From: Candidatus Odinarchaeota archaeon
Lineage (GTDB): Archaea > Asgardarchaeota > Baldrarchaeia > Baldrarchaeales > DXJG01
Assembly (NCBI GenBank): GCA_021158895.1
Contig: JAGGSW010000033.1
Span: 1-38,381, forward strand
Length of the DNA: 38,381 bases
Reading direction: 5' to 3'
The notes beneath the pieces are model-generated. The model was not told the origin of the DNA, made no database searches, and saw only the letters and a list, made by a program, of their open reading frames with translations. The position numbers were made by a program, and so were the translations under genes. Shown here in pieces: positions 5,398 through 30,774 of the stretch (positions within the stretch are counted from its first letter, which is position 1; each line of letters opens with the position of its first letter).

Positions 5398-6360
5398 TTA
5401 CTCAAGGAATTCTACGGTGTCTATTATTCCATCACTATCCTCATCTATTCCTTTAACCACTCTTGCTGGGACATCCGGGTTGTAAAAGTTATTTTCAGCA
5501 ACTTCATCAAGATGTTTAACAAAGGCAATTATTGCTGCTCGCGTACCCCAGTATCGTTTTCCAGCCAAGATTAGGATGCGAGTTTCATCAGGGTTGAAGG
5601 GATTGGGTATTTTAACGATTATGCCGCATTCATCCTCGTAATATGTTTTGTTAGAGATTTTTGAAACGATGCGACTTTGATGCATTATGTCAAAATATAT
5701 AGGTAATTTTTCGTTTATTTTATATGTAACTGTATTAACAATTGGCCCGCCGACCAATATTAGGTTTCTTTTCATGTCTCCCTCCCTTATTTCTGTATCT
5801 AATCGAGTAATAAATTCTGGTTCGCAACGGGAAATTGATCCAAGAAATAGAGCTAAGTCTACTGCGTAATGTCCATCTCTTGCTTGACTTCTATATGGAC
5901 CGTGAGAATCCGGACTTCCAATAACGATAAGGGTATCTAATTTTCCGTTCTTCACATGAGGATATAGAAACTGTCTGGATTTTTCACTTAGCGGGATAGC
6001 GGGTAAAGGAAATTCTTCAACATCTCTTGGTTCAGCTAGGTTTAGTACTAGGTTGAGTGATTCTACTACGTAATATTTGGCTACAGCCCCCTTTTTTTCC
6101 TCTCTTTTTTGAAGCTTTATAAGACCGGTTTTTTCTAATAGTTTAATATGATAATATATGGTTTGTTCATCAACCTTAAGGTAGTTGGCTAATTGACGTG
6201 AATACATTGGTTGAGAAGCAAGTGTTTTTAAAATTTTTAATCTTAATGGATTAGCGACCGCCAATATCTTATTAAAGTCATCAAGTAATGTGGCTGGAGT
6301 TGCAACGTACTTTCCTTCTTTTTTAAATAATATGTAGGGTTCCAATGAATACCCCTCCAT
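5398..6360 (-). CDS. ArsR-type winged-helix transcriptional regulator fused to an uncharacterised C-terminal domain of about 200 aa.
   Basis: Residues about 35-100 (NPLRLKILKTLASQPMYSRQLANYLKVDEQTIYYHIKLLEKTGLI) form a classic ArsR/HTH_20 pattern. I cannot assign the C-terminal alpha/beta region (LIVIGSPDSHGPY..., LILVGGPIVN..., ILILAGKRYWGTRAA). Confidence 0.6.
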   Translation of the reverse strand: MEGYSLEPYILFKKEGKYVATPATLLDDFNKILAVANPLRLKILKTLASQPMYSRQLANYLKVDEQTIYYHIKLLEKTGLIKLQKREEKKGAVAKYYVVESLNLVLNLAEPRDVEEFPLPAIPLSEKSRQFLYPHVKNGKLDTLIVIGSPDSHGPYRSQARDGHYAVDLALFLGSISRCEPEFITRLDTEIREGDMKRNLILVGGPIVNTVTYKINEKLPIYFDIMHQSRIVSKISNKTYYEDECGIIVKIPNPFNPDETRILILAGKRYWGTRAAIIAFVKHLDEVAENNFYNPDVPARVVKGIDEDSDGIIDTVEFLE

Positions 6361-6593: not shown

Positions 6594-8411
6594 GTGTGCG
6601 GTATTATCGGTATTGTTTCGAATGATCGACATGTTGCAAGCTTACTAAGAGAGTGTCTTAAGAGATTGGAGTATCGTGGATATGATTCTGTGGGAATAAC
6701 AACAATATATAATTCTACATTACACACTAAAAAAGATAAGGGTAAAATTGATGAAATACATCAGAAATTAAATTTTGATACGCTTCCTGGACATATAGGT
6801 ATAGGACATACTAGATGGGCGACACATGGTCCTCCTTCGAAGCGTAATGCTCATCCACATATGGACTGTACGAGGAAAATAGCTGTTGTACACAACGGGA
6901 TCATAGAGAATTTTTTAGAGCTGAGAAAGCAACTTGAAGAAAAAGGTCATGTATTCCAATCAGACACCGATACTGAAGTTATTCCGCATTTAATTGAGGA
7001 ATATATAGCAACGGGTTACAATTTGGCAGATGCTGTGCGAGAAGCACTTAAGCAATTAAAGGGCTCGTACGCTATAGCTGTTATATATGCTGAAGAACCA
7101 GATAAGATTGTTTGTGCTAGGAAAGATAGCCCCTTAGTTATTGGAATTGGTGAAAAAGCTGTCTATTGCGCATCCGATATACCAGCCTTCTTACCAATGA
7201 CCAACAAGGTAATTTTTCTTAATGACGGCGAACTTGCAATATTGACGCCCTATAGTGTGACTGTACAAAATCTTGAAGGTGAAGTTTTAACGAAGGAAAT
7301 CAAAATCATTAACTGGACTGCAGAGATGGCCCAAAAAGGAGGATTTCCTCATTTCGTTTTAAAAGAAATTCACGAACAACCTAGAGCAATAAGAGACACC
7401 CTAAGGACACGACAGGAATACGTGGATGTTTTTGTTGAAAGCATAATGAAAGCAAAGCGAATATATTTTGTAGCTGCTGGAACTTCTTACCACGCAGGAT
7501 TAACTGCCACGTACATGTTTTCAAAGCTTGCAAAAACATATTCACAAGCAGTAATTGCCTCTGAGTTTCCAGAGTTTATTGGTGAAACTTTAGATGAAGA
7601 TACTGTGATTGTAGCAATAACTCAATCAGGTGAAACAGCAGACACATTGACCGCCGTAAGACATGCAACGAAATATGGTGCAAAAATTTTGGCAATAACA
7701 AATGTCTTAGGAAGTTCAATAACAAGACATGCTCATCACACCTTCTACATGCAGGCAGGACCAGAAATAGGCGTAGTAGCAACAAAAACTTTTACAACTC
7801 AACTCGCAACTTTAGCATTAATAACAATAAACCTAGCAAGACAAAATGGAGCATTAACAGACATGGAAGCAAAGCAACTATTTGAGGAACTATACCAGAT
7901 ACCAGCGAAGGTAAAGGAGATTATAGAAACCCATGAAGAAAGAGCAAAAACTCTTGCAGAGAAATGCTATCTTAAGAATAATTTTTATTTCCTAGGAAGG
8001 GGAATAAGCACTGCAACAGCATTAGAAGGCGCTCTGAAACTTAAAGAAATATCGTATATTCATGCAGAAGGATACCCAGCAGGTGAATCAAAACATGGTC
8101 CCATAGCTCTTATAGAACCGGGTTATCCATGCGTCTTTATAGCACCAATGGACGAAACTCATAAGCATATAATAGGAAATATTATGGAGATGAAAGCAAG
8201 AGGTGCGGAAATAATAGCGGTAATAGATAAAAGCGATCAAGACGTGTTACAACTAGCAGATACTGCCTTTAAAATGCCATCTACACCCGCTATATTCACA
8301 CCAATAACCTACATCATCCCTCTTCAACTATTCGCCTATTATGTAGCAGTAAAAAGAGGGGTTGATCCAGATAAACCTCGTAACTTAGCAAAATCAGTAA
8401 CAGTAGTTTAA
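6594..8411 (+). CDS. glmS: Glutamine--fructose-6-phosphate aminotransferase (isomerising).
   Basis: 605 aa. GTG start followed by the catalytic Cys (MCGIIG), two SIS domains, and a C-terminal KPRNLAKSVTVV. GGAGG lies at 6582-6586. Confidence 0.95.
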   Translation: MCGIIGIVSNDRHVASLLRECLKRLEYRGYDSVGITTIYNSTLHTKKDKGKIDEIHQKLNFDTLPGHIGIGHTRWATHGPPSKRNAHPHMDCTRKIAVVHNGIIENFLELRKQLEEKGHVFQSDTDTEVIPHLIEEYIATGYNLADAVREALKQLKGSYAIAVIYAEEPDKIVCARKDSPLVIGIGEKAVYCASDIPAFLPMTNKVIFLNDGELAILTPYSVTVQNLEGEVLTKEIKIINWTAEMAQKGGFPHFVLKEIHEQPRAIRDTLRTRQEYVDVFVESIMKAKRIYFVAAGTSYHAGLTATYMFSKLAKTYSQAVIASEFPEFIGETLDEDTVIVAITQSGETADTLTAVRHATKYGAKILAITNVLGSSITRHAHHTFYMQAGPEIGVVATKTFTTQLATLALITINLARQNGALTDMEAKQLFEELYQIPAKVKEIIETHEERAKTLAEKCYLKNNFYFLGRGISTATALEGALKLKEISYIHAEGYPAGESKHGPIALIEPGYPCVFIAPMDETHKHIIGNIMEMKARGAEIIAVIDKSDQDVLQLADTAFKMPSTPAIFTPITYIIPLQLFAYYVAVKRGVDPDKPRNLAKSVTVV

Positions 8412-8553
8412 CCTAATTTAACAACTATTTAAATTATTTACGAATTCTTTTGCAGGTTTTGCAGCAATAACTTAAGTTGAAGAGAAGTTCATAGAAATGT
8501 AGATATAATGCTTAGTATCTTAGTTTTATTGGTAGTAATCGGAGGTTTATGAT

Positions 8554-9675
8554 TTGTGGATGATTTATAGGCCTGATGCTGTTACTGTTTGGCGTAATTC
8601 CGAAGTTAAGGATAGGCTTAGTCGGTATTATGCAATTATGAACGATAAATTACCTGCTAAGTTTCTAGTTGCAAAAAAGGTTTCGGTTAACGTGGATTTA
8701 AATGAAAATATTGAAAAGCTTTGGTATATACACGAGAAAACTAGTGAGAAGTTTAGGTCTTTACTTAAGAAAATAGATGCTGGTGAGGTCAATCTTGAGA
8801 ATTTAGATACTCCTAAGGTTTCTTATCTGGATCTAAAAATAGAAATCGCTTACCGTATTCTTCAAAAATGTTGCTTTTGTGAAAGGCGATGTAAAGTCAA
8901 TAGATTAAGAGGGGAAAGAGGTTTTTGTAGGATTGATGGGAAAGCAAGAGTTTCTACAGCTTTTCTCCATATGGGAGAAGAAGCTCCACTAGTTCCTTCT
9001 GGGACAATCTTTTTTGCTGGATGTAATTTTGGCCCTTGTGTTTTCTGTCAGAACTACGATATTTCAAATTATCCCGAAAATGGTGAAGAGGTAACACCGG
9101 AAAAACTAGCTAGAATTGTTAACAGTCTCAAAAGGGAAGGTGCGCGGAACGTCAATTGGGTAGGTGGAGAACCTACACCAAATGCGTATCATATAATTGC
9201 TTCTATGAAGCATACTACTGTAAATATTGCCCAACTATGGAATTCTAATATGTATTGTTCAAAGGAATTAATGAAACTACTTTTAGATATCATTGATTTT
9301 TGGCTTCCGGATTTCAAATACGGAAATGACAAATGTGCTGAGCGTCTCTCAAAGGTTTCAAACTATTGGAATATAGTTTCCAGAAATCATAAGATGGCTT
9401 ACGATGAAACTGTCGCACAGGGCACATCTGGTATGATCATTAGACATTTAGTATTACCGAACCATGTAGAATGCTGCACCCGTCCGATATTAGAATGGAT
9501 AGCTAAAAACTGCCCCAAAGCATTAGTAAACATCATGGGACAATACCGACCCCTATTTCAAGTCCCAGGAAACCCAGAATATAGCGATATAGATAGGCGC
9601 CCCACGGGAAAGGAAATGGAAAAGGCATACAAAATTGCAGACGAATTAAATATTTTGTGGAGACCGGTTAGCTGA
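8554..9675 (+). CDS. Radical SAM protein, PflX-like (COG1313-type pyruvate formate-lyase activase homologue).
   Basis: 373 aa. The motifs CERRCKVNRLRGERGFC...HMGEEAPL...GTIFFAGCNFGPCVFCQNYDIS match the PflX pattern. The start is TTG 8554 (8 nt after GGAGG) or ATG 8560. Confidence 0.75.
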   Translation: MWMIYRPDAVTVWRNSEVKDRLSRYYAIMNDKLPAKFLVAKKVSVNVDLNENIEKLWYIHEKTSEKFRSLLKKIDAGEVNLENLDTPKVSYLDLKIEIAYRILQKCCFCERRCKVNRLRGERGFCRIDGKARVSTAFLHMGEEAPLVPSGTIFFAGCNFGPCVFCQNYDISNYPENGEEVTPEKLARIVNSLKREGARNVNWVGGEPTPNAYHIIASMKHTTVNIAQLWNSNMYCSKELMKLLLDIIDFWLPDFKYGNDKCAERLSKVSNYWNIVSRNHKMAYDETVAQGTSGMIIRHLVLPNHVECCTRPILEWIAKNCPKALVNIMGQYRPLFQVPGNPEYSDIDRRPTGKEMEKAYKIADELNILWRPVS

Positions 9676-11201: not shown

Positions 11202-12248
11202 GTGCAACATATGGGTCAATATTTCTTTGTTGTTTCGGGGGAACTGGAGTCTTTACCTTTTGCCGAGATAAAAGCTATTTTAGAAAGTGAAAATATCAAC
11301 TACAGAGTTATTGACACGTTGGATCAAGTAATTATATTAGAATGCTCTGACAACCCGTGCAAAATTATTGCTAAACGAGCTGCTTATACACATGTATGTT
11401 GCAAGCTAATATTTTATTGCGAAGCTAACATTTTTGATATCGAAAGCCGTATAAAGGACTTATCATTTGATGATTTTTTGACCGGGAAATCTAGTTTCTC
11501 TATTAGAGTTAAACGTATAAAACAATCTTCTCCCCACATAAGTACCATCAAATTAGCGAAACATATCGGGAAAAACATACTGAAAGATGTAAAGAATATC
11601 AAAGTTGACTTAGAAACCCCTGATATTTCCTTTTACGGCGTTTTAACAGGAGAGGATTTCATTTTTGGTATTTGTGAAGCTGAAATTGATCGAGGCGCCT
11701 TTAATTTCAGGGCTACACATTTGCGTCCATATATGCATCCAAGTTCTATGAGCCCGTTCCTTTCTAGACTTTTAGTTAATCTTTCTAGAGCGAGAAATAA
11801 CAGTATTTTCTACGATCCTTTTTGTGGAGCAGGTGGGATTCTAATTGAAGCTGCCTTAATAGGCTGTAGAATTATTGGTTCCGATATCAGCCCTAAAATG
11901 GTTAAAGGCGCTATGTATAATTTGAGACATTACGGTTTAAATGTAAATGCGCTACTTGTTGCCGATGCGAGACACGCAAGAATTTTGGAAGTTGATTCTA
12001 TTAGTACTGATCCCCCCTATGGGATTTCTTCCTCTACCATGGGTAGTCCTCTTAAAAAACTAATTTACGAATTTATTGAAAATATTCCATCAATGCTCAG
12101 AAAAGGGAGTTGTGCTGTGGTTGCTACCCCTATTTGGGTTCCAACGGAAGAATTTATCGTGTCTTCCGGCCTTAAACTTGTTGAAGTTTATTTAATGCGT
12201 GTTCATAAGAGTTTAATACGTAAAATAATCATTTTTAGAAATATATGA
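11202..12248 (+). CDS. THUMP-domain tRNA (guanine-N2)-methyltransferase, Trm11/Trm-G10 family.
   Basis: 348 aa with an N-terminal THUMP-like region, a SAM-binding motif (DPFCGAGGILIEA) and a DPPYG catalytic motif. The likely true start is ATG 11211, 6 nt after GGTG. Confidence 0.8.
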   Translation: MQHMGQYFFVVSGELESLPFAEIKAILESENINYRVIDTLDQVIILECSDNPCKIIAKRAAYTHVCCKLIFYCEANIFDIESRIKDLSFDDFLTGKSSFSIRVKRIKQSSPHISTIKLAKHIGKNILKDVKNIKVDLETPDISFYGVLTGEDFIFGICEAEIDRGAFNFRATHLRPYMHPSSMSPFLSRLLVNLSRARNNSIFYDPFCGAGGILIEAALIGCRIIGSDISPKMVKGAMYNLRHYGLNVNALLVADARHARILEVDSISTDPPYGISSSTMGSPLKKLIYEFIENIPSMLRKGSCAVVATPIWVPTEEFIVSSGLKLVEVYLMRVHKSLIRKIIIFRNI

Positions 12249-12249
12249 G

Positions 12250-13176
12250 GTGTCCGATTTGAAAGTCATTTTTTTGGGAACCTCGGGTGGCGTGCCAACA
12301 AAAGAAAGAGGATTACCAGCCATTGCCATTAGGAAAGAAAGAGAATTGCTACTTTTTGATTGTGGAGAGGGTACTCAAAGACAAATGTTTAGATTTAATT
12401 TAAAAATAGGAAAATTATCTAAAATATTTATTACTCACCTTCATGGTGATCATGTACTTGGCGTACCAGGTTTAATTCAAACTTTTTCACTTCTAGGTCG
12501 AAGTAAGCCTCTAGAAATTTATGGTCCTCCAGGTTTACACGGGTTTCTTGAATCCATTTTAAAAACTGTTAAATTTACATTAACTTTCGATATAAAAGTC
12601 CACGAAGTCGAAAAAGGAGTTGTGGTCGACAGCCGAAATTACTACGTAGAATGCATGCCAGTTGACCACGGAATTTATACTCTTGCCTACGCTTTAATTG
12701 AAAAGCCTAGACCCGGAAAATTTTCTCCTGAGAAAGCCGAGTCACTTGGAATACCTAGGGGTCCCTTGTGGAAGAAACTTCAATTAGGCGAACCAGTTAC
12801 GTTAAAAAATGGGAGAGTTATTCATCCAGAACAGGTTATCGGGAAGCCTAGACCTGGAAGAAAAATAGTTTATAGTGGGGATACTAGACCTTGTGATGAA
12901 ATGGTTAATTTTGCGCGCAAAGCTGATCTTCTAATTCATGATGGAACTTTTAGCTGGAGTTTAAGAGAGAAAGCTCTGGAGGGTGGCCATTCAACAATCG
13001 TTGATGCGGCGGAAATCGCTTTAAAGGCTGGTGTAAAAAAATTAGTACTCTTCCACATTAGTCCAAGATATACTAAGGATGATATACCAAAATTAGAGGA
13101 AGAGGCTAAAAACATATTTTCTGAGAGTATTATCTCCTATGATTTTTTAACTATCGATATACCTTATTCATCTTGA
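12250..13176 (+). CDS. rnz: Ribonuclease Z (tRNA 3' endonuclease).
   Basis: 308 aa with metallo-beta-lactamase motif HLHGDH and N-terminal VIFLGTSGGVP. The start is GTG 12250 or TTG 12259 after GAGGTG. It begins 1 nt after the upstream methyltransferase stop. Confidence 0.9.
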   Translation: MSDLKVIFLGTSGGVPTKERGLPAIAIRKERELLLFDCGEGTQRQMFRFNLKIGKLSKIFITHLHGDHVLGVPGLIQTFSLLGRSKPLEIYGPPGLHGFLESILKTVKFTLTFDIKVHEVEKGVVVDSRNYYVECMPVDHGIYTLAYALIEKPRPGKFSPEKAESLGIPRGPLWKKLQLGEPVTLKNGRVIHPEQVIGKPRPGRKIVYSGDTRPCDEMVNFARKADLLIHDGTFSWSLREKALEGGHSTIVDAAEIALKAGVKKLVLFHISPRYTKDDIPKLEEEAKNIFSESIISYDFLTIDIPYSS

Positions 13177-21048: not shown

Positions 21049-24000
21049 TTAGCTATAGTCTGTTAGTCTTTTTTGTTTTTTCTCTTCTTTCTTCAATAGA
21101 ACTACATCATTTTCAGAAATCTCCCCGCCAATTTGTTTCTTAATGTTTTTCACGATTTCTGGTCCAATTAATGGTAGGGATAATAGTTCCCTTACTGTTG
21201 CTTTTTGTAGGTCAAATATGGTCTTGAAACCGTATCTGTAAAGTATCCTTGCTCTGACTCTTCCAATTCCTTTCAAACGAACCAGTTCTAATAGTTCTTC
21301 TCTTACACCGTGTTTTACTCTTTGTCTTACCTTCCATATTTCTGAAATTAGATCGTCTCTTTTAATTATTTTTGCTATTTCTTCGGCAGCATAGAGAAGC
21401 CAGTCCGCTGTTTCAACTATTCTTAGGAGATCTCCCGATCCTATTCCGTAGTTTTCAAGCATCTCATCTTCTGTCTTTTCATCTATCCAATCTTGTAAAA
21501 GCTGAGCTACTTTAACCTCTGAAAGAAACCATTCATACTCGGTGGGTTGTGCTAGGTAGTCCGGTACTTCAACTAGAAATTCATCGTAGTGCATATCTAC
21601 AATTTCCATGAATTTTTGGTAATCTTTGCGGCGAAGATACAATTTTACCATATCAGGAGTATGAGAAATTAGGTGGAGGAAAGATAGTGTGGTGGCTTTT
21701 TCTTTTTCAGCATTTAGTAGACCATCACGTATAATTACGGCTGTGAGAGGGTCAATGTAGAGTTCAGATACTCTTTTGCCTAAAGGTGTTGGTAAGAATA
21801 CTTGTTCCCTCTTTACTAGGAGCTCTTCAGTAATTAAAAAGTTTAAAATTCTTCTTATAACGGATTTTATGTTTTCAGGATCATATTGGTAAGCATAAAA
21901 TGTTTCGTTTATGAATTTTAAAAGGGATCTTTCGCTGTTTGCGTAACCCGCAGCGACAGTTGAGAGCACATGTGTTCTGAGTACTTGTTCATTTGCAAGC
22001 TTTGACCAGATTTTTTCAGGTTCACCGAATATGTAGGTTTCGAATAGTTGTTTCTTTTCTTCTTCGCTTTTAGCTATTAGTATGGCTTCCCCATATTTAT
22101 CATATTTTGGCCTTCCTGCCCTTCCTGCTTGCTGTTTATATTCTAGTATTGGAATAGGGTAACGTCCTAGATCTGATTCATAGCGATAATAATCTCTTAT
22201 TATAACACGTCTGGCTGGAAGGTTTACTCCAGCCGCTAGAGTAGGTGTTGCACATATTATTTTGATAATATTTTGCCTGAAAGTGTTCTCAATTATTTTT
22301 CTATGTTCGTAGTGTAGTCCAGCATGGTGAAAGGCGACTCCTCGTTTAACTAGCTCGGCAAGTTTCTCGCTCTGCTGTGTTCTAGTCCCTCTCCTCAATA
22401 TTTCGTCAGCTACTTCCGCAAGTGCTCTTTGCTGCGTTTTTGACAGAAGCTTTGGCAAGATTTTTGCTATTTTTGTTGCCATGCTTACAGCTGCCCTACG
22501 AGTGCTGAGGAAAACAAGGGATTGTCCTCCTTCGTATACCGTGTCTATGGCCAATGATACCACAGGGTTACTGTCAAATATTTTAAGTCTTTTTATAGTA
22601 CCATCATTAAACTCTATTACCTCCCCGTCAAATATTCCCTCTTTTAGAATCACTGGCCGCCAGTTACTTAGCACTAGTTTGGCGTTTAGCCAGTCAGCAA
22701 TCTCTTCTGCATTTTTTATCGTTGCACTTAAAGCTAAGAATTGTGCGTTTGGATTTACCTGTTTTAGTCTAGATAAGACTACTTCTAAGGTTGGTCCTCT
22801 ATGGGGATCATTAATTAAATGAATTTCATCCGCAACTATTACAGTGAGTTTATTAATCCATGGGGAATGATGACGTAGAAGTGAATCGATTTTTTCATTT
22901 GTATTGTGGCATATGACTCCGCCGATGCCCGCAATGAAGTTCTCACACCTAGGAACGGATAAGTCATATACGTAGTTTGATGATGGAGGTACTTGAACGA
23001 TTTTCTTAACTTTTGCAAAAGCAAAGTCCGAGTTCAAGATTCTTTTTATTTTTTCAAGTTCTTTAAGTAATGTTAATCCTGTTTTGGAAATATCGTAGAG
23101 ATAAAATTTGTTTTTGCCTTTTATTCTTATTAGTCCCTTTTTTAATAGAATTTTTAGATGAAAATTAACTTTTGACTCGTCAATCCTTAAGAATGAGGAT
23201 ATCTCTCTGATATTGAGTTCTCCACGATTTGCTAGCAAATTAAGAATTCTGGTTTTTGTAGAATTTTCCTCAGAATTTATTAATTTGAGGAGGTCTTCTC
23301 TACTAATTCTCTCTGCGGGATAATTGGGCGTTTTGTTGCTTAAGTGTCTCAATACGGTTTTTATTTGGTCTATAGGTAACATGCAAACAGTGTCTGTTTC
23401 TTGTACTTGTGGAGAATTTGAATAGTTTGATTTCACCTCATGATTAGTAATTTTGAAAGGAAACTTTTTAGGAATGAGTACATAGTCTCCTATTTGGATT
23501 TCAGATGTCTTTTTTGCTTTTATATTTAAATTTTCAAGAACATACACACTGTGACTACCAGTTACAGTTACTTCTCTTCCAGTTTCAAGCTGTAGTTTAT
23601 AGAGTGGCTCTGTTATTTTATGTCGAACTATTTTACTGATTTTTCTAAAACTTATACGATAACTCTCAGGATCAAATGCTAGGGTTTCGTAATTAAGATC
23701 TGATATGTCCAAAATTTCACATCCACTTGAATAGATTACTCTGTTTGATTTTTCTATTAATTTATCTACGAATTCCCCTATTTTAACGATTTTAACAGTT
23801 TTGTTTTCTTTAATTACTACGGGTTCATTATAATCTACAGAGCAAACAATAATGTCATAGTTTTCGAGCCATTTATCTGATGAATCGTAGTCACCTGTAG
23901 ATAATGCTACTTTTACCCCTATTTGTTCATATTTTTTGAATTCTTCGTATTTTTCATTGGCTAGAGCTCTTAATGGTACTAAATATAGGGCTTTGCCACC

Positions 24001-24138
24001 TTCATTTAAGATTGATTTTAACATTGCTAGCTCTGCTACAAGAGTTTTTCCAGAGGCTGTTGGTATGGCTAAAACTAAATTCTCATGATTAAGAGCCCCT
24101 TTTTTGATGGCTTCTTCTTGTGGAGGATATAAATTCAC
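21049..24138 (-). CDS. hel308: Hel308/Hjm (Ski2-like) DNA helicase interrupted by one intein. The true start is probably upstream, at 24201 (see findings).
   Basis: 1029 aa with Q-motif LYPPQ, Walker A PTASGKT, DEIH box, and a C-terminal winged-helix/ratchet/HhH region. The extein is 715 aa once the 314-aa insert is removed. Confidence 0.9.
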   Translation of the reverse strand: MNLYPPQEEAIKKGALNHENLVLAIPTASGKTLVAELAMLKSILNEGGKALYLVPLRALANEKYEEFKKYEQIGVKVALSTGDYDSSDKWLENYDIIVCSVDYNEPVVIKENKTVKIVKIGEFVDKLIEKSNRVIYSSGCEILDISDLNYETLAFDPESYRISFRKISKIVRHKITEPLYKLQLETGREVTVTGSHSVYVLENLNIKAKKTSEIQIGDYVLIPKKFPFKITNHEVKSNYSNSPQVQETDTVCMLPIDQIKTVLRHLSNKTPNYPAERISREDLLKLINSEENSTKTRILNLLANRGELNIREISSFLRIDESKVNFHLKILLKKGLIRIKGKNKFYLYDISKTGLTLLKELEKIKRILNSDFAFAKVKKIVQVPPSSNYVYDLSVPRCENFIAGIGGVICHNTNEKIDSLLRHHSPWINKLTVIVADEIHLINDPHRGPTLEVVLSRLKQVNPNAQFLALSATIKNAEEIADWLNAKLVLSNWRPVILKEGIFDGEVIEFNDGTIKRLKIFDSNPVVSLAIDTVYEGGQSLVFLSTRRAAVSMATKIAKILPKLLSKTQQRALAEVADEILRRGTRTQQSEKLAELVKRGVAFHHAGLHYEHRKIIENTFRQNIIKIICATPTLAAGVNLPARRVIIRDYYRYESDLGRYPIPILEYKQQAGRAGRPKYDKYGEAILIAKSEEEKKQLFETYIFGEPEKIWSKLANEQVLRTHVLSTVAAGYANSERSLLKFINETFYAYQYDPENIKSVIRRILNFLITEELLVKREQVFLPTPLGKRVSELYIDPLTAVIIRDGLLNAEKEKATTLSFLHLISHTPDMVKLYLRRKDYQKFMEIVDMHYDEFLVEVPDYLAQPTEYEWFLSEVKVAQLLQDWIDEKTEDEMLENYGIGSGDLLRIVETADWLLYAAEEIAKIIKRDDLISEIWKVRQRVKHGVREELLELVRLKGIGRVRARILYRYGFKTIFDLQKATVRELLSLPLIGPEIVKNIKKQIGGEISENDVVLLKKEEKKQKRLTDYS
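22903..23844 (-). mobile_element. Intein in hel308 (314 aa) lacking LAGLIDADG motifs and containing an ArsR-like wHTH.
   Basis: The host sequence DIIV | C...HN | TNEKIDSLL restores the conserved helicase motif Ia region. Cys1 codon tgc at 23842-44 and Asn codon aat at 22903-05 were checked on the DNA. Block B is TGSH. The C-terminus is NFIAGIGGVICHN followed by Thr+1. Confidence 0.85.
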
Positions 24139-24220: not shown

Positions 24221-27200
24221 CTAAGCTTTCTTGACATGGTCCGGTCTTGGCTCGAAAATTATACCTTCCTTTTTCATTCGTTCTATAGCTCTTTTAACAA
24301 ATTCTTCATCAATACCTTCTATGCTTGCTCTTTCAATAAGCTTTGATACTGGAACTGCTTTATCTACGTCTTCACTCAGTTCATCTATTAAATCTAATAT
24401 TTTTTCCATTTTGTCTCTTTGCGACTTGCTGTGCCCTGTCATTATTAGGTCTATGTCAAGTTGCCCCGTTTCGCTATCTATTCCTACTTGTTGTAAGGAG
24501 AGTTTCATAAGGCGTATTGCTTCCTCAGCATCTTCAACAGTTACTTTATCTCTGAGAGCCATCCTTGCATGAGCTTCAGCTAATCTAATTAAGGCTTCTA
24601 ATTGCCTCGCCGTTATAGGCACAGGGGATGTTGGAGCTTCACCTATACTCCTAAGCTCTAAATAGAACTGTTCAATTCTTTTCGCTGCCTCAGGAGTTAA
24701 CACCGGATGAACATTTTTCCTAGCATATGCAATGTATTTTCTAAGAAGGTCAGGAGGTATAGGTGGCTCAACGGTTCTCATTTGATGCAAAGCAAGAATA
24801 TGCTCAGCTACCTGTTTATCCACCTCTACCCTAGGCCTATCTGTCAAAATAAAAATCAAATCAAAACGAGACAAAATAGTCGGTGGAAGATTAATGTTAT
24901 CCGCTGGAGGCCTATAATGATCATACCTACCAAGCTTAGGGTTAGCAGCAGCCAAAATAGCTGTACGAGCATTAAGAGTAGCGACAATACCAGCCTTAGC
25001 AATACTAATTGTATTGTGGAGCACAAGTCCATGACTTATGAAATTCCTTGTTGGCTCCACTGTAACATCATAAACCCATTCTGTTTCGAACTTTCCATTA
25101 TTTTCTACGATTTCCACTTTCTCTATTTTTTCACCATTTATGCTTATTTCTAACTTCTTATGTCCTTCAGATGAGATTTCTCTAACTGCTGGAACAAGAA
25201 GCCCCACTTTTAATTCTTCTGCACTTACAGTTTCAATCTTTCCATCTTTGAAAACAAACACAGGATGTTCTGGGGTCACGAGTATCTCTTTACCATTTGA
25301 ATATAGTATTCTTATAAATCGACTCGGTGCTTTATGTCTGCTAACCCTGTTGATTTTTGTCCTGAATATTTTATCAAAGTCTGTAGTGAGAATTTCGATA
25401 TTTAGATCCGATACTGGAAGAATTTCACAATCTATCCCGTATATTTTCCTATCTAGAAATTGTTCGAAAAGATTATCGACAAAATCTCCGATTTTAACCT
25501 TGGTTCCATCTGCTAAAGTAATTTCAAAGAAAGGATGATAAGACTGCTGTTCCATCGCTTCGTGGATAGCTACCCTGTCCTGTGGGTTCATTTTGTCAAA
25601 TTCGTCAATGCATGCGACACCGCGATCTGAGAGCACTAGTGCTCCTGCTTCTAGACTCATTCCACCCGTTTCTGGGTCTCTTATTACCGCTGCGGTGTTG
25701 TGAACTATAATTCCGTTGGCTATGAAATTATGGGTTTCTTTAACTGTTAGGTCGTAAACATAGGGGATATTCTTTGAATCTAAAATTTCTACGTTCTTTA
25801 TTTTATCCCAGAATATGTCTGAATTAGCTAGTTTGTCGAGGTATTGTATCACTTTTCTGGCGAGTTCTATTTGAATGCGGGTCTGATTGATCTTAATATT
25901 TAGTTTGTGAGCTAATTTTTTGTTTTTCTCATTTAGTAATGTTGCTAGTTTTTCTAAAATGTCTAGAGGCACCTTTATATTCCTGTTCTTTCTTCTGAAA
26001 TATTCGTAGAATTGACTTTTATCAATTCCTAAGTCTTTCTTAAGATCTTTCGATTTATAGCTTGATAAGACAGAGGCTAACTTTTCTTTAATTTCATATG
26101 GTAGGGCTATTTTTACTTTTTTAGCTTCTGCATTTCTTAGATGAATAACTATTTCTTGAAGTTTCCTTCTTGAGATGCTACTTCCGTTGTATTTCTTCTT
26201 TATTTTTAGGTCGTAAAATTTGCTGACTATTTCTAAGATTTGCCCGATTTTTGGAATAACGTCTACATTGGTGCTAGCTTTTGTTCTTTTTGAAAGAACT
26301 TTTTCAAGTTTTTCCTTTTTCGCATTGTATTTAAAACCAATTAGGTCTCTAAACTTTTTCATATTCTCCCCATAAATTGTTAGAACGTACCTATCATGGA
26401 TGGTTCTTATTACTTTTTTACGCCCATTCATATCTGTAAATTCTTCAACCTTTCCTGCGGAACTTCTTTTTCTTAAGAAAGATATTATCCCGAATCTTAG
26501 CAATACTAGTTGTAGTTTTTTCGCTAATTTTTCACTCGTAGTATCAAATTCTATAATTGAAGATCCCGTTTCTCTTTCTACTACACTGGCATCGCAATCG
26601 AATAAACCAGAAATAAATGCTGCTAGTTCATTATTGGATAGTGATAACATTATTTCACTCATATCTATTTTGTGTGCCTTTGGAGATTCTGGTATTCCTA
26701 ATTTTTTAAGTATGTGAGCCACTATTTTTGAATGAAACCTTAAGTAGGGCGTCCCGTGTTTATCGATTCCCTCTTCGACGCTGGCTCCGAAAAGATTTTT
26801 AACTAGTTTTTTGAATTTATTTCTAAGTTCTGTTGAGGTATTTGAAAATCTTATTGAATATCCGCCGTAATTTGTTCTTGAAATAGATCCATCTCCTGCG
26901 ACTAACCCCGCAAAGTACATGAAATCTTGATTAATGCATTTTGGGAGTTTAATTTTACTTCCCATTCTCTGTGAAAAGAAGCCTATGTGATTTGAAATTT
27001 CATCATAGGTGTATCCTGCCATTTTTGCTAACTTAATTAATTCATGTAGGGGAATATTGCCTTTTGCATTTGGGTTAACCCAGTTGTAATAGAGTTTATT
27101 TTCATTTATTCCTAGTTTTCTGGCAAGTTCTCTTGTAGTTAGATTATATTTTGACTTAAGTTCTTCAAGAATTTTCTTAACAAAAGTCTTAGCTCCATAA

Positions 27201-28735
27201 ACAACTATGTTATCTTGATCTTCTACGAGTTCCAAGGTGAATACTTTTCTTCCCTTTTGTTCTAGTTTTCTTGCAACAGCAACATTGTCTCCCGGAACAA
27301 AATCTTTTGCTTCCTTCCATACTATTACTCCGTTTTCGATAGTCATCATCTTTGTTTCTGGGGTTAAGATAATTTGCCTTCCTGTTCTCGTTGTAACCTT
27401 TATTAGTTTTTCAGGTGATTTTAGCTTCCAAAACTCACCTGATGGCCTTGTTGAAACATTTAATGGATTTATTGTTTGTATTTTTACTGGGTCTGCACTT
27501 TTAGCTACAAGTACGCCATTTTTAATCTGCGTAAGTCCATCTTTTACCTTCTCTTCAAATAGGACTTCTATTGGTAAAAGAGTACTATCAAGTGCAACTA
27601 AAGTTCCTGGTGCTACGCAGAGCCCTGCTGCGGTTGAGCCTTTTCCTGATGTGTATATTCCTCTTGGGGCTATTCTTGCGACGTATCTTAGTAGTTGGCT
27701 TTTGGCGGTTCCTGGATCGCCTACTAGGAGTATGTTTGGTTCTCCTCTTATTCTCATTCCGTCTGGGAGTGTTTTTGGTACTCCTCCGAATAGTAGGAGT
27801 GCTATTGCTTCTTTTATGTCATCGTAGCCGTAGATTGATGGTGCGATGGATCGTATTATTTTTTTGTGTATCCATTGGTCTTTTGCTAGTTCTAGTATTT
27901 TTTGTTCTTCTTCTGGAGCTATTTCTAGTCTTTCTGCTTCTTTTTCGGTTAGTTCTACGTAGTTTGTTTCTATGAATACTCTGAATGTGGCTGTTTTTCT
28001 TCCTCGTTGCCCGAATTCTGGGGAGGTTTTTAATATGCCTATTACTGTTACTCGGTCTCCTGGTCTGGCGATGTCCACTAGGTCGTCTTTGAGGTAGGCA
28101 TCAATGAAGCGGGGAAGTTGTCCTGGTGGTAGGTCTTCAGGTCTTTCTTGTACGCGTATTTTTTGCCAGTCGATAAATTTTGATTCTTCGACTATTAGTT
28201 TGAATGGTCCTTTTCTTCTACATGTTGGATTTGTACATTGGACAGGGGGGGTGTATTTCCCCTCTTCTTGGAGGACCACTATTTTTTCGTGGCATCGTTG
28301 GCATTCAAAAACAGCTTCAATTAATTGTGGTTTTACTTCGCTTGCCCTTGTTATTATGCCATCTATAGCCACGAGTTGCCCTATGTGGTGGGATCTTATT
28401 TTTCTTAATGATATTTTTTCTGGGAGGTTTTTAAATCTAGGGTAGAATTTTTCTATTTTTTTAGCGTAATCGGGGTCCTCTATTAGCATGACATTTTTTA
28501 TTGCTCTTGAAGCTGATTCAATAAATTCCTCTGGGTTTTCAAGTGTCTTTTTAGCGAGTTCAGGATCGAATCTTAATAAATCTTCAAAGTCTATTATAAG
28601 CGACTTACTGCCTGTTAACGACATTTTTTGTAGCATAACACGATATTTGTAGGTTCCATCCTCTGTTCTGTAGCTTTTAATAAAATCTTCAAATCTTTCA
28701 ATGGGGTCAAATATTCCTTCAATCTTCATATTCAT
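24221..28735 (-). CDS. mcm: Minichromosome maintenance (MCM) replicative helicase interrupted by two inteins.
   Basis: 1504 aa with an N-terminal OB/zinc region (CQRCHE...CTNPTC), Walker A GDPGTAKSQ, Walker B CIDEFDKM, arginine finger SRFDL, and a C-terminal wH. The extein is 686 aa after removing 641 and 177 aa. Confidence 0.95.
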   Translation of the reverse strand: MNMKIEGIFDPIERFEDFIKSYRTEDGTYKYRVMLQKMSLTGSKSLIIDFEDLLRFDPELAKKTLENPEEFIESASRAIKNVMLIEDPDYAKKIEKFYPRFKNLPEKISLRKIRSHHIGQLVAIDGIITRASEVKPQLIEAVFECQRCHEKIVVLQEEGKYTPPVQCTNPTCRRKGPFKLIVEESKFIDWQKIRVQERPEDLPPGQLPRFIDAYLKDDLVDIARPGDRVTVIGILKTSPEFGQRGRKTATFRVFIETNYVELTEKEAERLEIAPEEEQKILELAKDQWIHKKIIRSIAPSIYGYDDIKEAIALLLFGGVPKTLPDGMRIRGEPNILLVGDPGTAKSQLLRYVARIAPRGIYTSGKGSTAAGLCVAPGTLVALDSTLLPIEVLFEEKVKDGLTQIKNGVLVAKSADPVKIQTINPLNVSTRPSGEFWKLKSPEKLIKVTTRTGRQIILTPETKMMTIENGVIVWKEAKDFVPGDNVAVARKLEQKGRKVFTLELVEDQDNIVVYGAKTFVKKILEELKSKYNLTTRELARKLGINENKLYYNWVNPNAKGNIPLHELIKLAKMAGYTYDEISNHIGFFSQRMGSKIKLPKCINQDFMYFAGLVAGDGSISRTNYGGYSIRFSNTSTELRNKFKKLVKNLFGASVEEGIDKHGTPYLRFHSKIVAHILKKLGIPESPKAHKIDMSEIMLSLSNNELAAFISGLFDCDASVVERETGSSIIEFDTTSEKLAKKLQLVLLRFGIISFLRKRSSAGKVEEFTDMNGRKKVIRTIHDRYVLTIYGENMKKFRDLIGFKYNAKKEKLEKVLSKRTKASTNVDVIPKIGQILEIVSKFYDLKIKKKYNGSSISRRKLQEIVIHLRNAEAKKVKIALPYEIKEKLASVLSSYKSKDLKKDLGIDKSQFYEYFRRKNRNIKVPLDILEKLATLLNEKNKKLAHKLNIKINQTRIQIELARKVIQYLDKLANSDIFWDKIKNVEILDSKNIPYVYDLTVKETHNFIANGIIVHNTAAVIRDPETGGMSLEAGALVLSDRGVACIDEFDKMNPQDRVAIHEAMEQQSYHPFFEITLADGTKVKIGDFVDNLFEQFLDRKIYGIDCEILPVSDLNIEILTTDFDKIFRTKINRVSRHKAPSRFIRILYSNGKEILVTPEHPVFVFKDGKIETVSAEELKVGLLVPAVREISSEGHKKLEISINGEKIEKVEIVENNGKFETEWVYDVTVEPTRNFISHGLVLHNTISIAKAGIVATLNARTAILAAANPKLGRYDHYRPPADNINLPPTILSRFDLIFILTDRPRVEVDKQVAEHILALHQMRTVEPPIPPDLLRKYIAYARKNVHPVLTPEAAKRIEQFYLELRSIGEAPTSPVPITARQLEALIRLAEAHARMALRDKVTVEDAEEAIRLMKLSLQQVGIDSETGQLDIDLIMTGHSKSQRDKMEKILDLIDELSEDVDKAVPVSKLIERASIEGIDEEFVKRAIERMKKEGIIFEPRPDHVKKA
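25013..25543 (-). mobile_element. MCM intein 2 (177-aa mini-intein with no endonuclease domain), starting with Ser.
   Basis: The junctions are HEAMEQQ | S...GLVLHN | TISIAKAGI. Codons tct 25541-43 and aat 25013-15 were checked. Block B is TPEH. Removing it restores the universally conserved MEQQTISIAKAG motif. Confidence 0.85.
25697..27619 (-). mobile_element. MCM intein 1 (641 aa) with a LAGLIDADG homing-endonuclease domain.
   Basis: The junctions are GKGSTAAGL | C...IIVHN | TAAVIRDPE. Codons tgc 27617-19 and aac 25697-99 were checked. There are two LAGLIDADG motifs (FMYFAGLVAGDGSI and LAAFISGLFDCDASV), plus an HTH-like segment (TTRELARKLGINENKLY) and a Lys-rich helical region of about 170 aa. 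Confidence 0.9.
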
Positions 28736-29288
28736 GTTTTTCTCCTTCTAATACTCTTCTCTTCCAAGTAGACAAGATTTTTGAAAGATATTTGTAAAGT
28801 ATTTTTTCTTCTGGTAGTAATGATCTGGTGGATGTTGATAATTCGGAGTTTTGCATGGATAGCTTTATGATTTTCCCTGTTCTTACAGTGATAAGATCTC
28901 TTAATGCTATTTTAAACTTCTCGTTGTTTTCTTTTGTCGTTTTTCTCAGCTTTTCTCCATGCTTTAACCCTATATACGACATGTTTTTTAGTTCTTGAAT
29001 TTCTGGTATTTGTGTTTCTTTCCATACATATTTGTAAATGTCTGTATACGATACATTAATTGGAAATTCTTTAAGTTCAGCTTTCCCCTCCTCTATTAGT
29101 GGTATTGCTTGCCAAAGTCGAAGTTCTATAATATCATCTTTTTTAAAAGGTCCGATGTTTTTCTTTCCCAGAGATAACTGTGGTATATCTTCAAGTATCT
29201 TTATTTTTACAATCATATTTTTTAGTTTAAAGGAAAGTCTTTTTAGCTCCGTGTCTTCGTCAGTAAAGAAAGTTGACATTAATGTCAC
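28719..29288 (-). CDS. gins23: GINS complex subunit, Gins23-type (B-domain at the N-terminus, helical A-domain at the C-terminus).
   Basis: About 186-189 aa. The segment GPFKKDDIIELRLWQAIPLIEEGKAEL resembles the Psf2/Psf3-like beta domain. It lies immediately upstream of mcm and overlaps it by 17 nt, as in crenarchaeal gins23-mcm operons. The likely start is ATG 29279, after AGGTGA. Confidence 0.7.
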   Translation of the reverse strand: MTLMSTFFTDEDTELKRLSFKLKNMIVKIKILEDIPQLSLGKKNIGPFKKDDIIELRLWQAIPLIEEGKAELKEFPINVSYTDIYKYVWKETQIPEIQELKNMSYIGLKHGEKLRKTTKENNEKFKIALRDLITVRTGKIIKLSMQNSELSTSTRSLLPEEKILYKYLSKILSTWKRRVLEGEKHEYED

Positions 29289-29364
29289 CTAATGAAATTA
29301 TAACGAATAGCTTAAAAAATGTGGGATTATTTCAATTAATAGCTTTTGTGGAGTTGAAAATTTT

Positions 29365-30774
29365 ATGACGTACATTTTAAAGTGTCCGAAATGTGGAAAT
29401 GTTTCTAAAGAAATGGGGCCTAATTATCTATGTGAAAAATGCGGCACATTATTAGAATATGTTTATGACTATGAAAACATCGATTTTAATTTTGAAGCCA
29501 CTAGAAATGGTAATATTTGGAGATACGAAAAAATTTTGCCCAATATACGAAGAAGAATAACTTTAGGTGAAGGAGGAACTCCGCTCAAGATAGCTGAAGA
29601 TTTAGCGAGAAAAATAGGATTAAAAACTATATTTCTTAAGGATGAAACTTTAAACCCAACAAATTCATTCAGAGACCGGGCTGCAGCTTTAATGGTTTCT
29701 CAAGCATTAGATTATGGATATAAGAAGATAGTTTGCGCGTCTAATGGTAATCTTGGTGCATCTATTGCTGCGTATTGCGCAAAAGCTCATATTCATGCAA
29801 AGATCATTGTTCCTAAAGCAACTCACATTGGGAAACTCGCTCAAATGTTTATTTATGATGCAGAAGTGGTGGAAAAAGGAGAAACATTAGACGATTCTTT
29901 AATTTTCGTTAAAAGAATCCTTACAGATAAGAATTTTTATGATGCAACCGCCGAACATAATTCTTTAACTATCGAGGGCCAAAAAACTATATCTTTCGAA
30001 ATAGTTGAGAAAATGGGGATCCCCGATTGGGTTATAGTCCCCATGGGGAGTGGTGGAACAATCTATTCTCTTTGGAAAGGATTTATCGAGTTAAGGGAAA
30101 TGGGTATTTTGGAAAATTTACCCCATATGGTGGGTGTTCAAGCAGAAGAATGTTCTCCAATAGTAAAAATGTTTTTAAATAAAAAAGACCACGGTTTTGA
30201 GAAAATGGGTATAAATACGCAGGCATTAGCTATATTGGTTAAGAAACCTGCTAACAGTTTTCTTGCTTTAAAAGCTATTAAAAATTCTAATGGTATTGCT
30301 GTAGCTGTTTCTGATAATCAAATCATGTTGGCAGAAAAACTTCTCGCCAAAACTGAAGGCTTATTTGCCGAACCAGCGAGTGCTTCAACTATAGCCGCTC
30401 TTTCAAACTTATTGAACGAAGGAATTATCAATAAAAGCGATAAGGTTGTCTGCTTGATAACAGCAAGCGGATTAAAAGCCCCATATGTTTTAGAAGCAAT
30501 TATTCGTAGAGGAAAGAAAATTAGCTTTAGAAAGAGCCTAGGTGTCAAGCTTCAAATTTTAAAACTCCTTGATATGGGAGTTTCTTATGGATATGAATTG
30601 TGGAAAGCTTTGGGAAGGGATATAAGTATTCAAGCTGTTTACCAGCACTTAAATGAGTTGGAAGAAAAGGAGCTTGTAAAAAGTGATTGGAAAGAAAGAA
30701 GAAAATATTACCAACTGACAGAGAAAGGCAAACATGTCTTGAACTTGCTTGAAACTTTGATCTTGCTATTTTAA
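29365..30774 (+). CDS. Threonine-synthase-like fold-type-II PLP-family protein with an N-terminal zinc ribbon, a substituted PLP lysine, and a C-terminal PadR-like wHTH.
   Basis: 469 aa. CPKCG...CEKCG is followed by a ThrC-like core (GEGGTPL, NPTNSFRDRAA, EGQKTISFEI, VGVQAEE, EPASAS). Residues about 393-469 (LQILKLLDMGVSYGYELWKAL...VYQHLNELEEKELV...YYQLTEKG) form the PadR/wHTH pattern. Confidence 0.8.
   Translation: MTYILKCPKCGNVSKEMGPNYLCEKCGTLLEYVYDYENIDFNFEATRNGNIWRYEKILPNIRRRITLGEGGTPLKIAEDLARKIGLKTIFLKDETLNPTNSFRDRAAALMVSQALDYGYKKIVCASNGNLGASIAAYCAKAHIHAKIIVPKATHIGKLAQMFIYDAEVVEKGETLDDSLIFVKRILTDKNFYDATAEHNSLTIEGQKTISFEIVEKMGIPDWVIVPMGSGGTIYSLWKGFIELREMGILENLPHMVGVQAEECSPIVKMFLNKKDHGFEKMGINTQALAILVKKPANSFLALKAIKNSNGIAVAVSDNQIMLAEKLLAKTEGLFAEPASASTIAALSNLLNEGIINKSDKVVCLITASGLKAPYVLEAIIRRGKKISFRKSLGVKLQILKLLDMGVSYGYELWKALGRDISIQAVYQHLNELEEKELVKSDWKERRKYYQLTEKGKHVLNLLETLILLF

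Follow-up and report, generated by a model that had tools for sequence, protein, structure and literature searches.

A threonine-synthase-like protein fused to a PadR winged helix is a candidate vitamin B6-responsive transcription factor of Archaea

We analyzed a stretch of 38,381 nucleotides of Baldrarchaeial DNA (contig JAGGSW010000033.1 of assembly GCA_021158895.1), hereafter the window, and in it the gene at 29365..30774 on the forward strand (stop codon included), which codes for a 469-residue protein resembling threonine synthase (ThrC). Comparisons of sequences and gene contexts suggest that this gene codes for a one-component transcription factor responsive to vitamin B6 or pyridoxal 5'-phosphate (PLP) and not for a threonine synthase, a reading to which we assign a probability of about 0.6. 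That the protein is a regulator rather than an enzyme is very likely, and the odds that the regulator responds to B6 or PLP are slightly better than even. The original prediction, made from this DNA alone, was that a PadR-type DNA-binding protein senses its ligand through a non-catalytic ThrC-like domain, and comparative evidence now backs this proposal.

From N- to C-terminus, the protein comprises a zinc ribbon, a fold-type-II PLP domain of ThrC type and a PadR winged helix. The open reading frame (ORF) and its ThrC-like core were as predicted, and every motif quoted in the prediction was present in the translation (GEGGTPL, EGQKTISFEI, VGVQAEE, EPASAS, ASNGNLGAS, MGSGGT, LAILVKKP, GYELWKAL, VYQHLNELEEKELV and YYQLTEKG). 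Pfam PALP (PF00291) matched residues 65-366 with an E value of 1.8e-70, the threonine synthase model TIGR00260 scored 216.3 bits against a cut-off of 167.1, and solved ThrC structures in the Protein Data Bank (PDB) were matched with E values of 1e-53 to 1e-67, 2zsj among them at 1.5e-67. Pfam PadR (PF03551) matched residues 398-459 over model positions 1-73 of 75 (E 4.8e-11, 42.9 bits against a gathering cut-off of 27), and the PadR proteins 9qbc, 9qbd, 7wjp and 4ejo were matched at E values of 2e-4 to 9e-3. The zinc-ribbon matches in Pfam were weak (residues 6-33, E 9.5e-4, below the cut-off). The four Cys residues of the putative ribbon (7, 10, 23 and 26) were kept across the family, and because the canonical archaeal ThrC paralogues have a ribbon too, it is inherited and not specific to the fusion.

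An AlphaFold2 model with 76 family members as input reached a mean predicted local distance difference test (pLDDT) score of 91.4 and a predicted template modelling score of 0.80. It showed a ThrC-like body, a disordered linker and then an alpha-alpha-alpha-beta-beta-alpha winged helix-turn-helix (wHTH), with helices at 394-403, 409-416, 422-434 and 453-468, strands at 438-443 and 446-451, and pLDDT mostly 84-97. Together with the PF03551 match, this topology bears out the PadR-like wHTH that had been proposed for the C-terminus. In Foldseek, the body superimposed on the threonine synthases 2zsj, 6cgq and 1uim with template modelling scores, normalised to the target, of 0.81-0.86; identity to solved ThrC enzymes was 34-42%, and no solved structure covered the whole architecture. 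The features of the gene are as follows.

29377..29463 (+): four-Cys zinc ribbon, residues 5-33 (weak Pfam matches; conserved Cys columns)
29557..30462 (+): ThrC-type PALP domain, residues 65-366 (PF00291, 2zsj, Foldseek)
29671..29673 (+): codon AGA, Arg103, in the column of the Schiff-base lysine (direct reading; four ThrC alignments)
29740..29754 (+): 'asparagine loop' S126-N-G-N-L130, canonical S-T-G-N-T (alignment to 1uim)
29950..29970 (+): A196-E197-H-N-S-L-T202 in place of canonical N154-S155-V-N-P-x-R160 (alignment to 1uim)
30046..30060 (+): PLP-phosphate loop G228-S-G-G-T232, canonical G-N-A-G-N, glycines kept (column statistics)
30460..30477 (+): T366-A-S-G-L-K371 motif (column statistics)
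30478..30537 (+): flexible linker, residues 372-391 (pLDDT below 50 at 372-379 and 381-391)
30544..30768 (+): PadR-type wHTH and C-terminal helix, residues 394-468 (PF03551, PDB PadR proteins, model)

The predicted loss of the catalytic lysine was confirmed. The codon aga at 29671-29673 lies in the context cca aca aat tca ttc aga gac cgg (P-T-N-S-F-R-D-R), and HMMER alignments paired Arg103 with the SFKDR lysine of 2zsj, 2d1f, 6cgq and 1uim, in the last of which, T. thermophilus ThrC, it is Lys61. A word-indexed search for homologues returned 4830 matches, of which the best 120 all combined PALP with PadR in 463-494 residues; 119 of these carried Arg in the lysine column and one carried Met. 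These counts, along with the 30 members from several sources in the 90%-identity cluster of the protein, rule out a sequencing error at codon 103.

The substrate side of the active site was changed as well. We take the contacts of the O-phosphohomoserine phosphate to be Thr88, Asn154, Ser155, Arg160 and Asn188 in T. thermophilus numbering, the residues reportedly described by Omi et al. in 2003. In the alignment to 1uim, all five differ in the window protein, where they correspond to Leu130, Ala196, Glu197, Thr202 and Ser229, respectively. The canonical paralogues in related loci retain T, N, S, R and N at these positions together with the motif N-S-x-N-P-[YF]-R, whereas the Thr88 position is Leu in 48 of 71 lysine-less fusions. 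The canonical loops that the prediction had expected also proved right, since archaeal ThrC proteins in related loci read ASTGNTSAS, NP(Y/F)RLEGQK, VGNAGN and AIRIGSP.

The cofactor contacts, counted over the same 71 lysine-less fusions in T. thermophilus numbering, were nearly invariant: Phe60 (63 Phe and 7 Tyr), Asp62 (71/71), Arg63 (71/71), Gly86 (window Gly128, 70/71), Asn87 (window Asn129, 64/71), Gly187 (window G228, 67/71) and Gly189 (window G230, 71/71). The same holds for the Thr of the ring nitrogen (window T366, 69/71) and for the Gly and Lys of G-L-K (window G369, 71/71; window K371, 69/71). T366 is presumably the Thr that makes the hydrogen bond to the ring nitrogen of PLP in enzymes of ThrC type, the residue roles being those known from ThrC structures. 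Judged by these columns, the PLP pocket is kept while the substrate-phosphate pocket is remodelled, a pattern that would fit binding of PLP or a close analogue without processing of O-phosphohomoserine.

Loss of the lysine and gain of the wHTH go together across the family. Run exhaustively against 1.84 billion cluster representatives, phmmer found 1375 matches at E <= 1e-30, and the best 150 were cross-tabulated.

wHTH present: not Lys 71, Lys 2, gap in the lysine column 3
wHTH absent: not Lys 3, Lys 71, gap in the lysine column 0

Thus, 71/73 sequences with the wHTH were non-Lys, versus 3/74 without it (Fisher p 1.5e-35). Among these best 150 representatives, the lysine was replaced by Leu (19), Ile (16), Arg (14), Val (6), Thr (5), Met (4), Phe (3) and others, a variety consistent with a site that catalysis no longer constrains. 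Scanning of genomes recovered full-length fusions from Jordarchaeia, Hermod- and Promethearchaeia, Thorarchaeota, Bathyarchaeia, Methanomethylicota, Nitrososphaerota, Desulfurococcales and a metagenome-assembled genome (MAG) of Thermococci. The lysine column was read in 38 genomic fusion loci (single loci are cited below by L numbers). It held Arg, as in the window, in 18 loci from Bathyarchaeia, Jordarchaeia, Thermococci and Desulfurococcales, and a hydrophobic residue in 13 from Thor, Nitrososphaerota and Methanomethylicota. Lys was retained in seven, namely a Loki/Hermod clade (L017-L021) and two Bathyarchaeial loci (L007 and L009). In a rough neighbour-joining tree, all fusions formed one clade separate from canonical ThrC, with a 'hydrophobic' and a 'K/R' subclade, the Lys-bearing sequences being nested in the latter. 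The Lys-bearing fusions share their neighbour and operator, described below, with the other fusions, which indicates that the lysine is dispensable for the function of the family, though not always absent.

The fusion thus belongs to a large pan-archaeal family that is mis-named threonine synthase. The window protein matched NF004170 (PRK05638), an equivalog model named 'threonine synthase', with 457.9 bits against a cut-off of 421; the alignment spans protein residues 5-462 and model positions 2-441 of 442, that is, end to end, so that the model includes the wHTH. NCBI labels proteins with over 90% identity to it 'threonine synthase [Candidatus Baldrarchaeia archaeon]', in line with an origin of the window in this class of Asgard archaea. 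Many divergent fusions score under the NF004170 cut-off (compared for L019, L025 and L031) yet pass TIGR00260 with 167-216 bits against 167.1, and are therefore also named threonine synthase. Canonical enzymes coexist with the fusions. In four Bathyarchaeial loci (L008, L010, L011 and L014), a canonical thrC lies divergent from the adjoining fusion, and the TIGR00260 scores of such enzymes were 362-377 bits (L010 and L014) versus 216 for the window protein. Canonical ThrC and fusion also occur within one MAG in Thermococci (L022 and L034) and within one in Bathyarchaeia (L028 and L069).

Clustering of the neighbours of the 38 fusion loci identified an S-component of energy-coupling factor (ECF) transporters (PF07155, E 1e-25 to 1e-38) as the dominant partner. 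The family hidden Markov model (HMM) detected it at 27 fusion loci, whereas the 42 loci holding only canonical ThrC all lacked a match. In L005, a more divergent S-component stands with ECF A, A' and T genes divergent from the fusion, giving a total of 28/38 versus 0/42 (p 1.6e-13). The S-component gene lies co-directionally downstream in Bathyarchaeia, Odin and Desulfurococcales, is convergent in Loki/Hermod, and is divergent in Thor, Nitrososphaerota and some Bathyarchaeia; this variation by lineage indicates that the adjacency was kept through rearrangements.

A palindrome precedes the S-component gene. It reads TAGTATAGTT-AT-AACTATACTA in Bathyarchaeia and ATAAGTT-NN-AACTTAT, in two copies, in Loki/Hermod. 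The common core, WAGTT-NN-AACTW, had 26 exact matches in 1.29 Mb of loci, 19 of which lay 7-71 bp upstream of an S-component start, where 0.07 would be expected (p 2e-43). The core match in L032 falls within the coding sequence of a GlyA-like protein and was put down to chance. The candidate 22-bp operator consensus is TAGTAWAGTT-RT-AACTWTACTA, with TAGTATAGTTATAACTATACTA as the predicted orthologue site. In the reverse test, a metagenome collection scanned with the 22-bp pattern TAGTAWAGTTRTAACTWTACTA returned at least 120 loci. Among the 120 matches listed, an S-component start lay 1-74 bp downstream of the site in 104, the locus held a gene for a ThrC-like protein with wHTH in 95, and 87 had both; pdxS-pdxT followed the operator once. 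Matches in L098 and L193 belong to bacterial phage-repressor loci and are unrelated, and a search for further operator copies in the listed loci gave six core matches, none of them informative. The operator appears to abut or overlap the presumed TATA-to-start region, which is the usual position of archaeal repressor sites.

Several lines of evidence connect the partner genes with vitamin B6. The S-component profile had a single PDB match, 4hzu chain S (E 1.8e-26, 157/177 profile positions), and no match to RibU, ThiT, BioY or FolT at E <= 1. This chain is L. brevis HmpT/PdxU2, whose bound substrate was identified as pyridoxamine (PMC4860826), and the known B6 S-components, PdxU and PdxU2/HmpT, are both members of PF07155 (PMC9997740). 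Four of the six HmpT pocket residues (Glu41, Tyr120, Asn140 and Gln143) have conserved archaeal counterparts. Furthermore, the metagenomic locus L203 has a perfect operator at 1735-1756, with pdxS 18 bp downstream of it and pdxT next; pdxS scored 494 bits against 395 with NF003215 and pdxT 214 against 106 with TIGR03800. The Nitrososphaerales locus L071 has the fusion and pdxS-pdxT in divergent orientation, ~130 bp apart (pdxS, NF003215, 441 against 395). Archaea have only the PdxS/PdxT route to the vitamin (PMC9997740). In bacteria, the regulon of the MocR-type regulator PdxR comprises pdxST, pdxK and pdxU, and MocR proteins are reported absent from Archaea (PMC5320631), so that the fusion family looks like a non-homologous archaeal counterpart of PdxR. 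As far as gene neighbourhoods can tell, the genomic context points to B6 or PLP as the signal that is sensed, in preference to O-phosphohomoserine or amino acids.

Other genes recur next to the S-component. A 335-residue protein of the AIR-synthase/PurM superfamily (PF00586 and PF02769) is encoded after it in nine genome loci and in 70 of the 120 listed metagenome loci, for example at 12026-13033 (+) in L013, 3105-4118 (-) in L002 and 8006-9013 (+) in L122. Its best PDB match was HypE (E 2e-24), and it reached no NCBIfam equivalog cut-off; speculatively, this protein might use ATP to modify the vitamer once imported, for instance as a non-orthologous B6 kinase. In the Thermococci MAG, ribose-5-phosphate isomerase A is encoded two ORFs 3' of the fusion (L022, 7894-8577, +), with a 107-residue ORF between; ribose 5-phosphate is a substrate of PdxS. 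In Bathyarchaeum-like loci (e.g. L083, 10031-10753, +), a protein with an NAD-kinase C-terminal domain follows the S-component; nine metagenome loci show this. Both of these neighbours could be coincidence.

In the mechanism that we propose, the PadR winged helix would bind a palindromic operator overlapping the core promoter of the target genes, probably as a dimer because the ThrC and PadR folds both dimerise. The ThrC-derived domain retains the PLP pocket but lacks the Schiff-base lysine and the O-phosphohomoserine phosphate residues, losses that would abolish ThrC chemistry while leaving reversible binding of PLP or a B6 vitamer. Occupancy of this sensor domain would report the B6 status of the cell. 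On its operator, the ligand-bound protein would repress the genes for B6 uptake, namely the PdxU2/HmpT-like ECF S-component and the adjacent HypE/PurM-like gene, and in some lineages also pdxS-pdxT; a drop in B6 would release it from the DNA.

The architecture, the Arg in the lysine column, the coupling of wHTH and lysine loss, the conserved PLP pocket, the association of fusion, operator and S-component, and the two pdxST links are observed; the other steps of this proposal are inferred. The fusion protein is presumably the factor that binds the palindrome, and no other regulator gene was consistently present. The ligand would be PLP or a B6 vitamer, for which the loss of the lysine would make binding reversible, as suits a sensor, and regulation would probably take the form of repression by the ligand-bound protein. 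The Baldrarchaeial copy in the window would act like its Odin, Bathy and Loki orthologues, orthology being the sole argument here, and its own targets would have to lie outside these 38 kb. More tentatively, and with a little less than an even chance, we suggest that an archaeal B6 regulator evolved from a duplicated threonine synthase that gave up its lysine, and that it controls an unrecognised B6 salvage module made up of the S-component, the HypE/PurM-like protein as a possible missing kinase, and sometimes pdxST.

A number of observations weigh against the B6-regulator reading, and three other explanations were considered along with them. In the 38-kb window, the family operator in its Bathyarchaeial and Lokiarchaeial forms (up to three mismatches) gave chance-level matches only, none near a relevant start codon, and neither an S-component gene (family HMM search) nor a pdx gene was present. 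The minority of fusions that keep Lys could be catalytically active. It is nevertheless very improbable that the window protein is a genuine threonine synthase whose extra C-terminal domain serves oligomerisation or makes it a 'trigger enzyme'. The scores above the cut-offs of NF004170 and TIGR00260, the identity to solved ThrC enzymes, the kept PLP pocket and the Lys-bearing fusions would all suit an enzyme. However, the lysine column holds Arg here and a mix of hydrophobic and polar residues family-wide, five substrate-phosphate contacts are changed, with Ser to Glu among them, canonical thrC paralogues coexist, and the extra domain has a genuine DNA-binding fold. Less improbable, but still unlikely, is the main alternative, an amino-acid-responsive regulator of the threonine pathway that would sense threonine or a related amino acid. 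Its ThrC-derived domain would hold PLP non-covalently and capture the effector as an external aldimine, like GABA in GabR, and the regulon would comprise thrC and an uptake system. The sensor derives from ThrC and keeps both the PLP pocket and the carboxylate-binding S-x-G-N loop, and the canonical thrC adjoining the fusion in the four Bathyarchaeial loci also fits a threonine-pathway signal. Moreover, exact core matches lie directly upstream of canonical, lysine-containing thrC in a Bathyarchaeota MAG (L037, 759-770, TAGTTGTAACTA) and a Thaumarchaeota MAG (L049, 777-788, TAGTTGGAACTA); these are two of the seven background matches (p 1.6e-4). Either thrC is in the regulon or its adjacency is left over from a local gene duplication at the origin of the fusion. 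Against this alternative, no partner recurs nearly as regularly as the PdxU2/HmpT-like S-component, the operator or the fusion is connected in two phyla with pdxST, genes unrelated to threonine, and bacterial PdxR regulons hold PLP-dependent enzymes too (PMC5320631).

The identity of the vitamin can be questioned in its turn. The B6 assignment leans on homology to one characterised S-component and on just two pdxST links, and PF07155 also includes riboflavin transporters. Two pocket residues differ from HmpT, His84 being replaced by an invariant Lys106 and Gln87 by an invariant Glu109 (numbering of the S-component at 11419-12057 (-) in L019), so that another B6 vitamer may be the substrate, conceivably one that bears an aldehyde or is phosphorylated. 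The changed pair would also suit a regulator of the uptake of another micronutrient, such as the thiamine precursor hydroxymethylpyrimidine, with a domain ligand unrelated to B6. The third conserved gene of the cluster is PurM/HypE/ThiL-like, and HmpT was first predicted to carry hydroxymethylpyrimidine (PMC4860826). We regard this explanation as distinctly doubtful, since every PLP-contacting residue is retained in the sensor, the pdxS-pdxT links would be left unexplained, and no thiamine genes were seen in the loci inspected. Finally, the Thor- and Nitrososphaerota-type fusions carry a different element, ATATATA-N10-TATATAT, just upstream of the fusion (L024-L028, L031, L046, L071 and L072; GGATATATAATCTGCAGCCTATATATCGG in L071). 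It may represent two back-to-back TATA boxes of a bidirectional promoter; its persistence in L072, despite a co-directional upstream gene, suggests that it may instead be an operator with a different half-site spacing.

In the window, the neighbours agreed with the original prediction. The gene is flanked by a divergent block coding for a GINS-like protein, MCM (with inteins) and Hel308 (with an intein) and by a convergent four-gene NiFe-hydrogenase operon. The head-to-head arrangement of GINS-like/MCM genes and fusion is kept in Baldr-, Odin- and Freyarchaeial loci, and likewise in the Jordarchaeial L001, judging by ORF sizes only. Its coordinates are 28719-30774 in the window, 7215-9419 in L084, 7261-9428 in L085 and 9233-11410 in L001. 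Being conserved Asgard synteny, this arrangement is not evidence for a regulatory link. The window protein shares 53-54% identity with its Odin and Jord/Frey counterparts. In the Odin locus, the S-component lies directly 3' of the fusion, where the window lineage has the NiFe-hydrogenase operon. The upstream region holds the following elements.

29289..29364: intergenic spacer between the fusion and the divergent GINS-like gene, where the promoters presumably lie
29306-29313 and 29338-29345: direct repeat AATAGCTT
29293-29301 / 29326-29334: inverted repeat

Alignment showed this 76-bp region to be nearly invariant in relatives whose proteins are 88% and 76% identical, which suggests a functional promoter or operator sequence. 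Beside it, a 14-bp perfect palindrome, TGACATTAATGTCA, at 29274-29287 spans the start of the GINS-like gene, for which GTG 29288 is listed and ATG 29279 is likelier, both inside the palindrome. It is kept in the relatives L081 and L082. As a site for the regulator, this palindrome was rejected: the window has no other good copy, and no connection to the regulator was made.

The MCM gene (24221-28735, -, 1504 residues) is broken by intein sequence, and the Hel308-type helicase (21049-24138, -, 1029 residues) has an intein containing an ArsR/MarR-like wHTH. The intein load varies among relatives, MCM measuring 1747, 1325, 1050 and 684 residues in L081, L082, L084 and L085, respectively. Elsewhere in the window, 5398-6360 (-) codes for a 320-residue protein that pairs, unusually, an ArsR-type HTH with an S-layer-like outer domain (PF05124).

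The original prediction had also stated that no such protein was known to have been described. A full-text literature search found no description of a ThrC-like/PadR regulator family, although papers beyond the searched literature are possible; the proteins themselves are not new, however, because this large archaeal family already has the curated model NF004170. A 2024 survey of archaeal fusion proteins mentions a cysH-thrC fusion as the sole thrC fusion, and a survey of B6 pathways names only PdxR-type regulators (PMC9997740). If our proposal is correct, this would be the first PLP- or B6-responsive regulator proposed for Archaea, a convergent counterpart of bacterial PdxR, and the first transcription factor to employ a fold-type-II PLP domain. 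For uncultured Bathyarchaeia and Asgard archaea, it would provide a testable operator together with a candidate regulon, and would reveal an uncharacterised archaeal module of B6 uptake and salvage, while prokaryotic B6 transporters are still poorly known (PMC9997740). It would also imply a systematic annotation error through NF004170: thousands of 'threonine synthase' labels in Asgard archaea, Bathyarchaeia, Nitrososphaerota and others would be wrong, and reconstructions from archaeal MAGs may credit a thrC that is not there. The lysine-less PLP pocket would then be a natural experiment in turning an enzyme active site into a reversible cofactor sensor.

The fusion shares with ThrC the fold, clear homology and the PLP pocket, and its zinc ribbon is common to archaeal ThrC of the PRK08197 type; it differs in having Arg for the catalytic Lys, a replaced phosphate site and ~100 extra residues, comprising the linker and the wHTH. 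As in the PadR proteins 9qbc and 4ejo, the wHTH carries the recognition-helix signature Y-x-x-L-x-x-L and is followed by a helix. However, PadR proteins are small (about 110-180 residues), with an N-terminal wHTH and the ligand site in the C-terminal helical part, whereas the wHTH of the window protein is C-terminal (residues 394-468 of 469), behind a 390-residue enzyme-derived domain. The archaeal regulators ThiR, with a ThiN-like domain, and RbkR, with a riboflavin kinase domain, were reportedly described and tested experimentally by Rodionova et al. in 2017. They likewise join an archaeal DNA-binding domain to a copy of a vitamin-related enzyme and use palindromic operators near the promoters of synthesis and uptake genes; the vitamin, the enzyme fold and the DNA-binding family are different. 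Since enzyme-derived sensors joined to DNA-binding domains are known from MocR, GabR, PdxR, ThiR and RbkR, the fusion does not constitute a new category. Among its closest parallels is PdxR, which resembles it, as do MocR and GabR, in being a transcription factor with a PLP-enzyme fold as effector domain, and whose regulon of pdxST and the PF07155 transporter pdxU (PMC5320631) consists of the kinds of genes tied to the fusion or operator in the relatives of the window protein. The bacterial regulators combine an N-terminal GntR wHTH with a C-terminal fold-type-I, aminotransferase-like domain bearing the PLP lysine, in contrast to the PadR wHTH and fold-type-II, ThrC-like domain here; the order of the domains is reversed, and the Schiff-base lysine is missing in most members of the fusion family. 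The fusion is an analogue of the MocR-type PdxR and not a member of that family.

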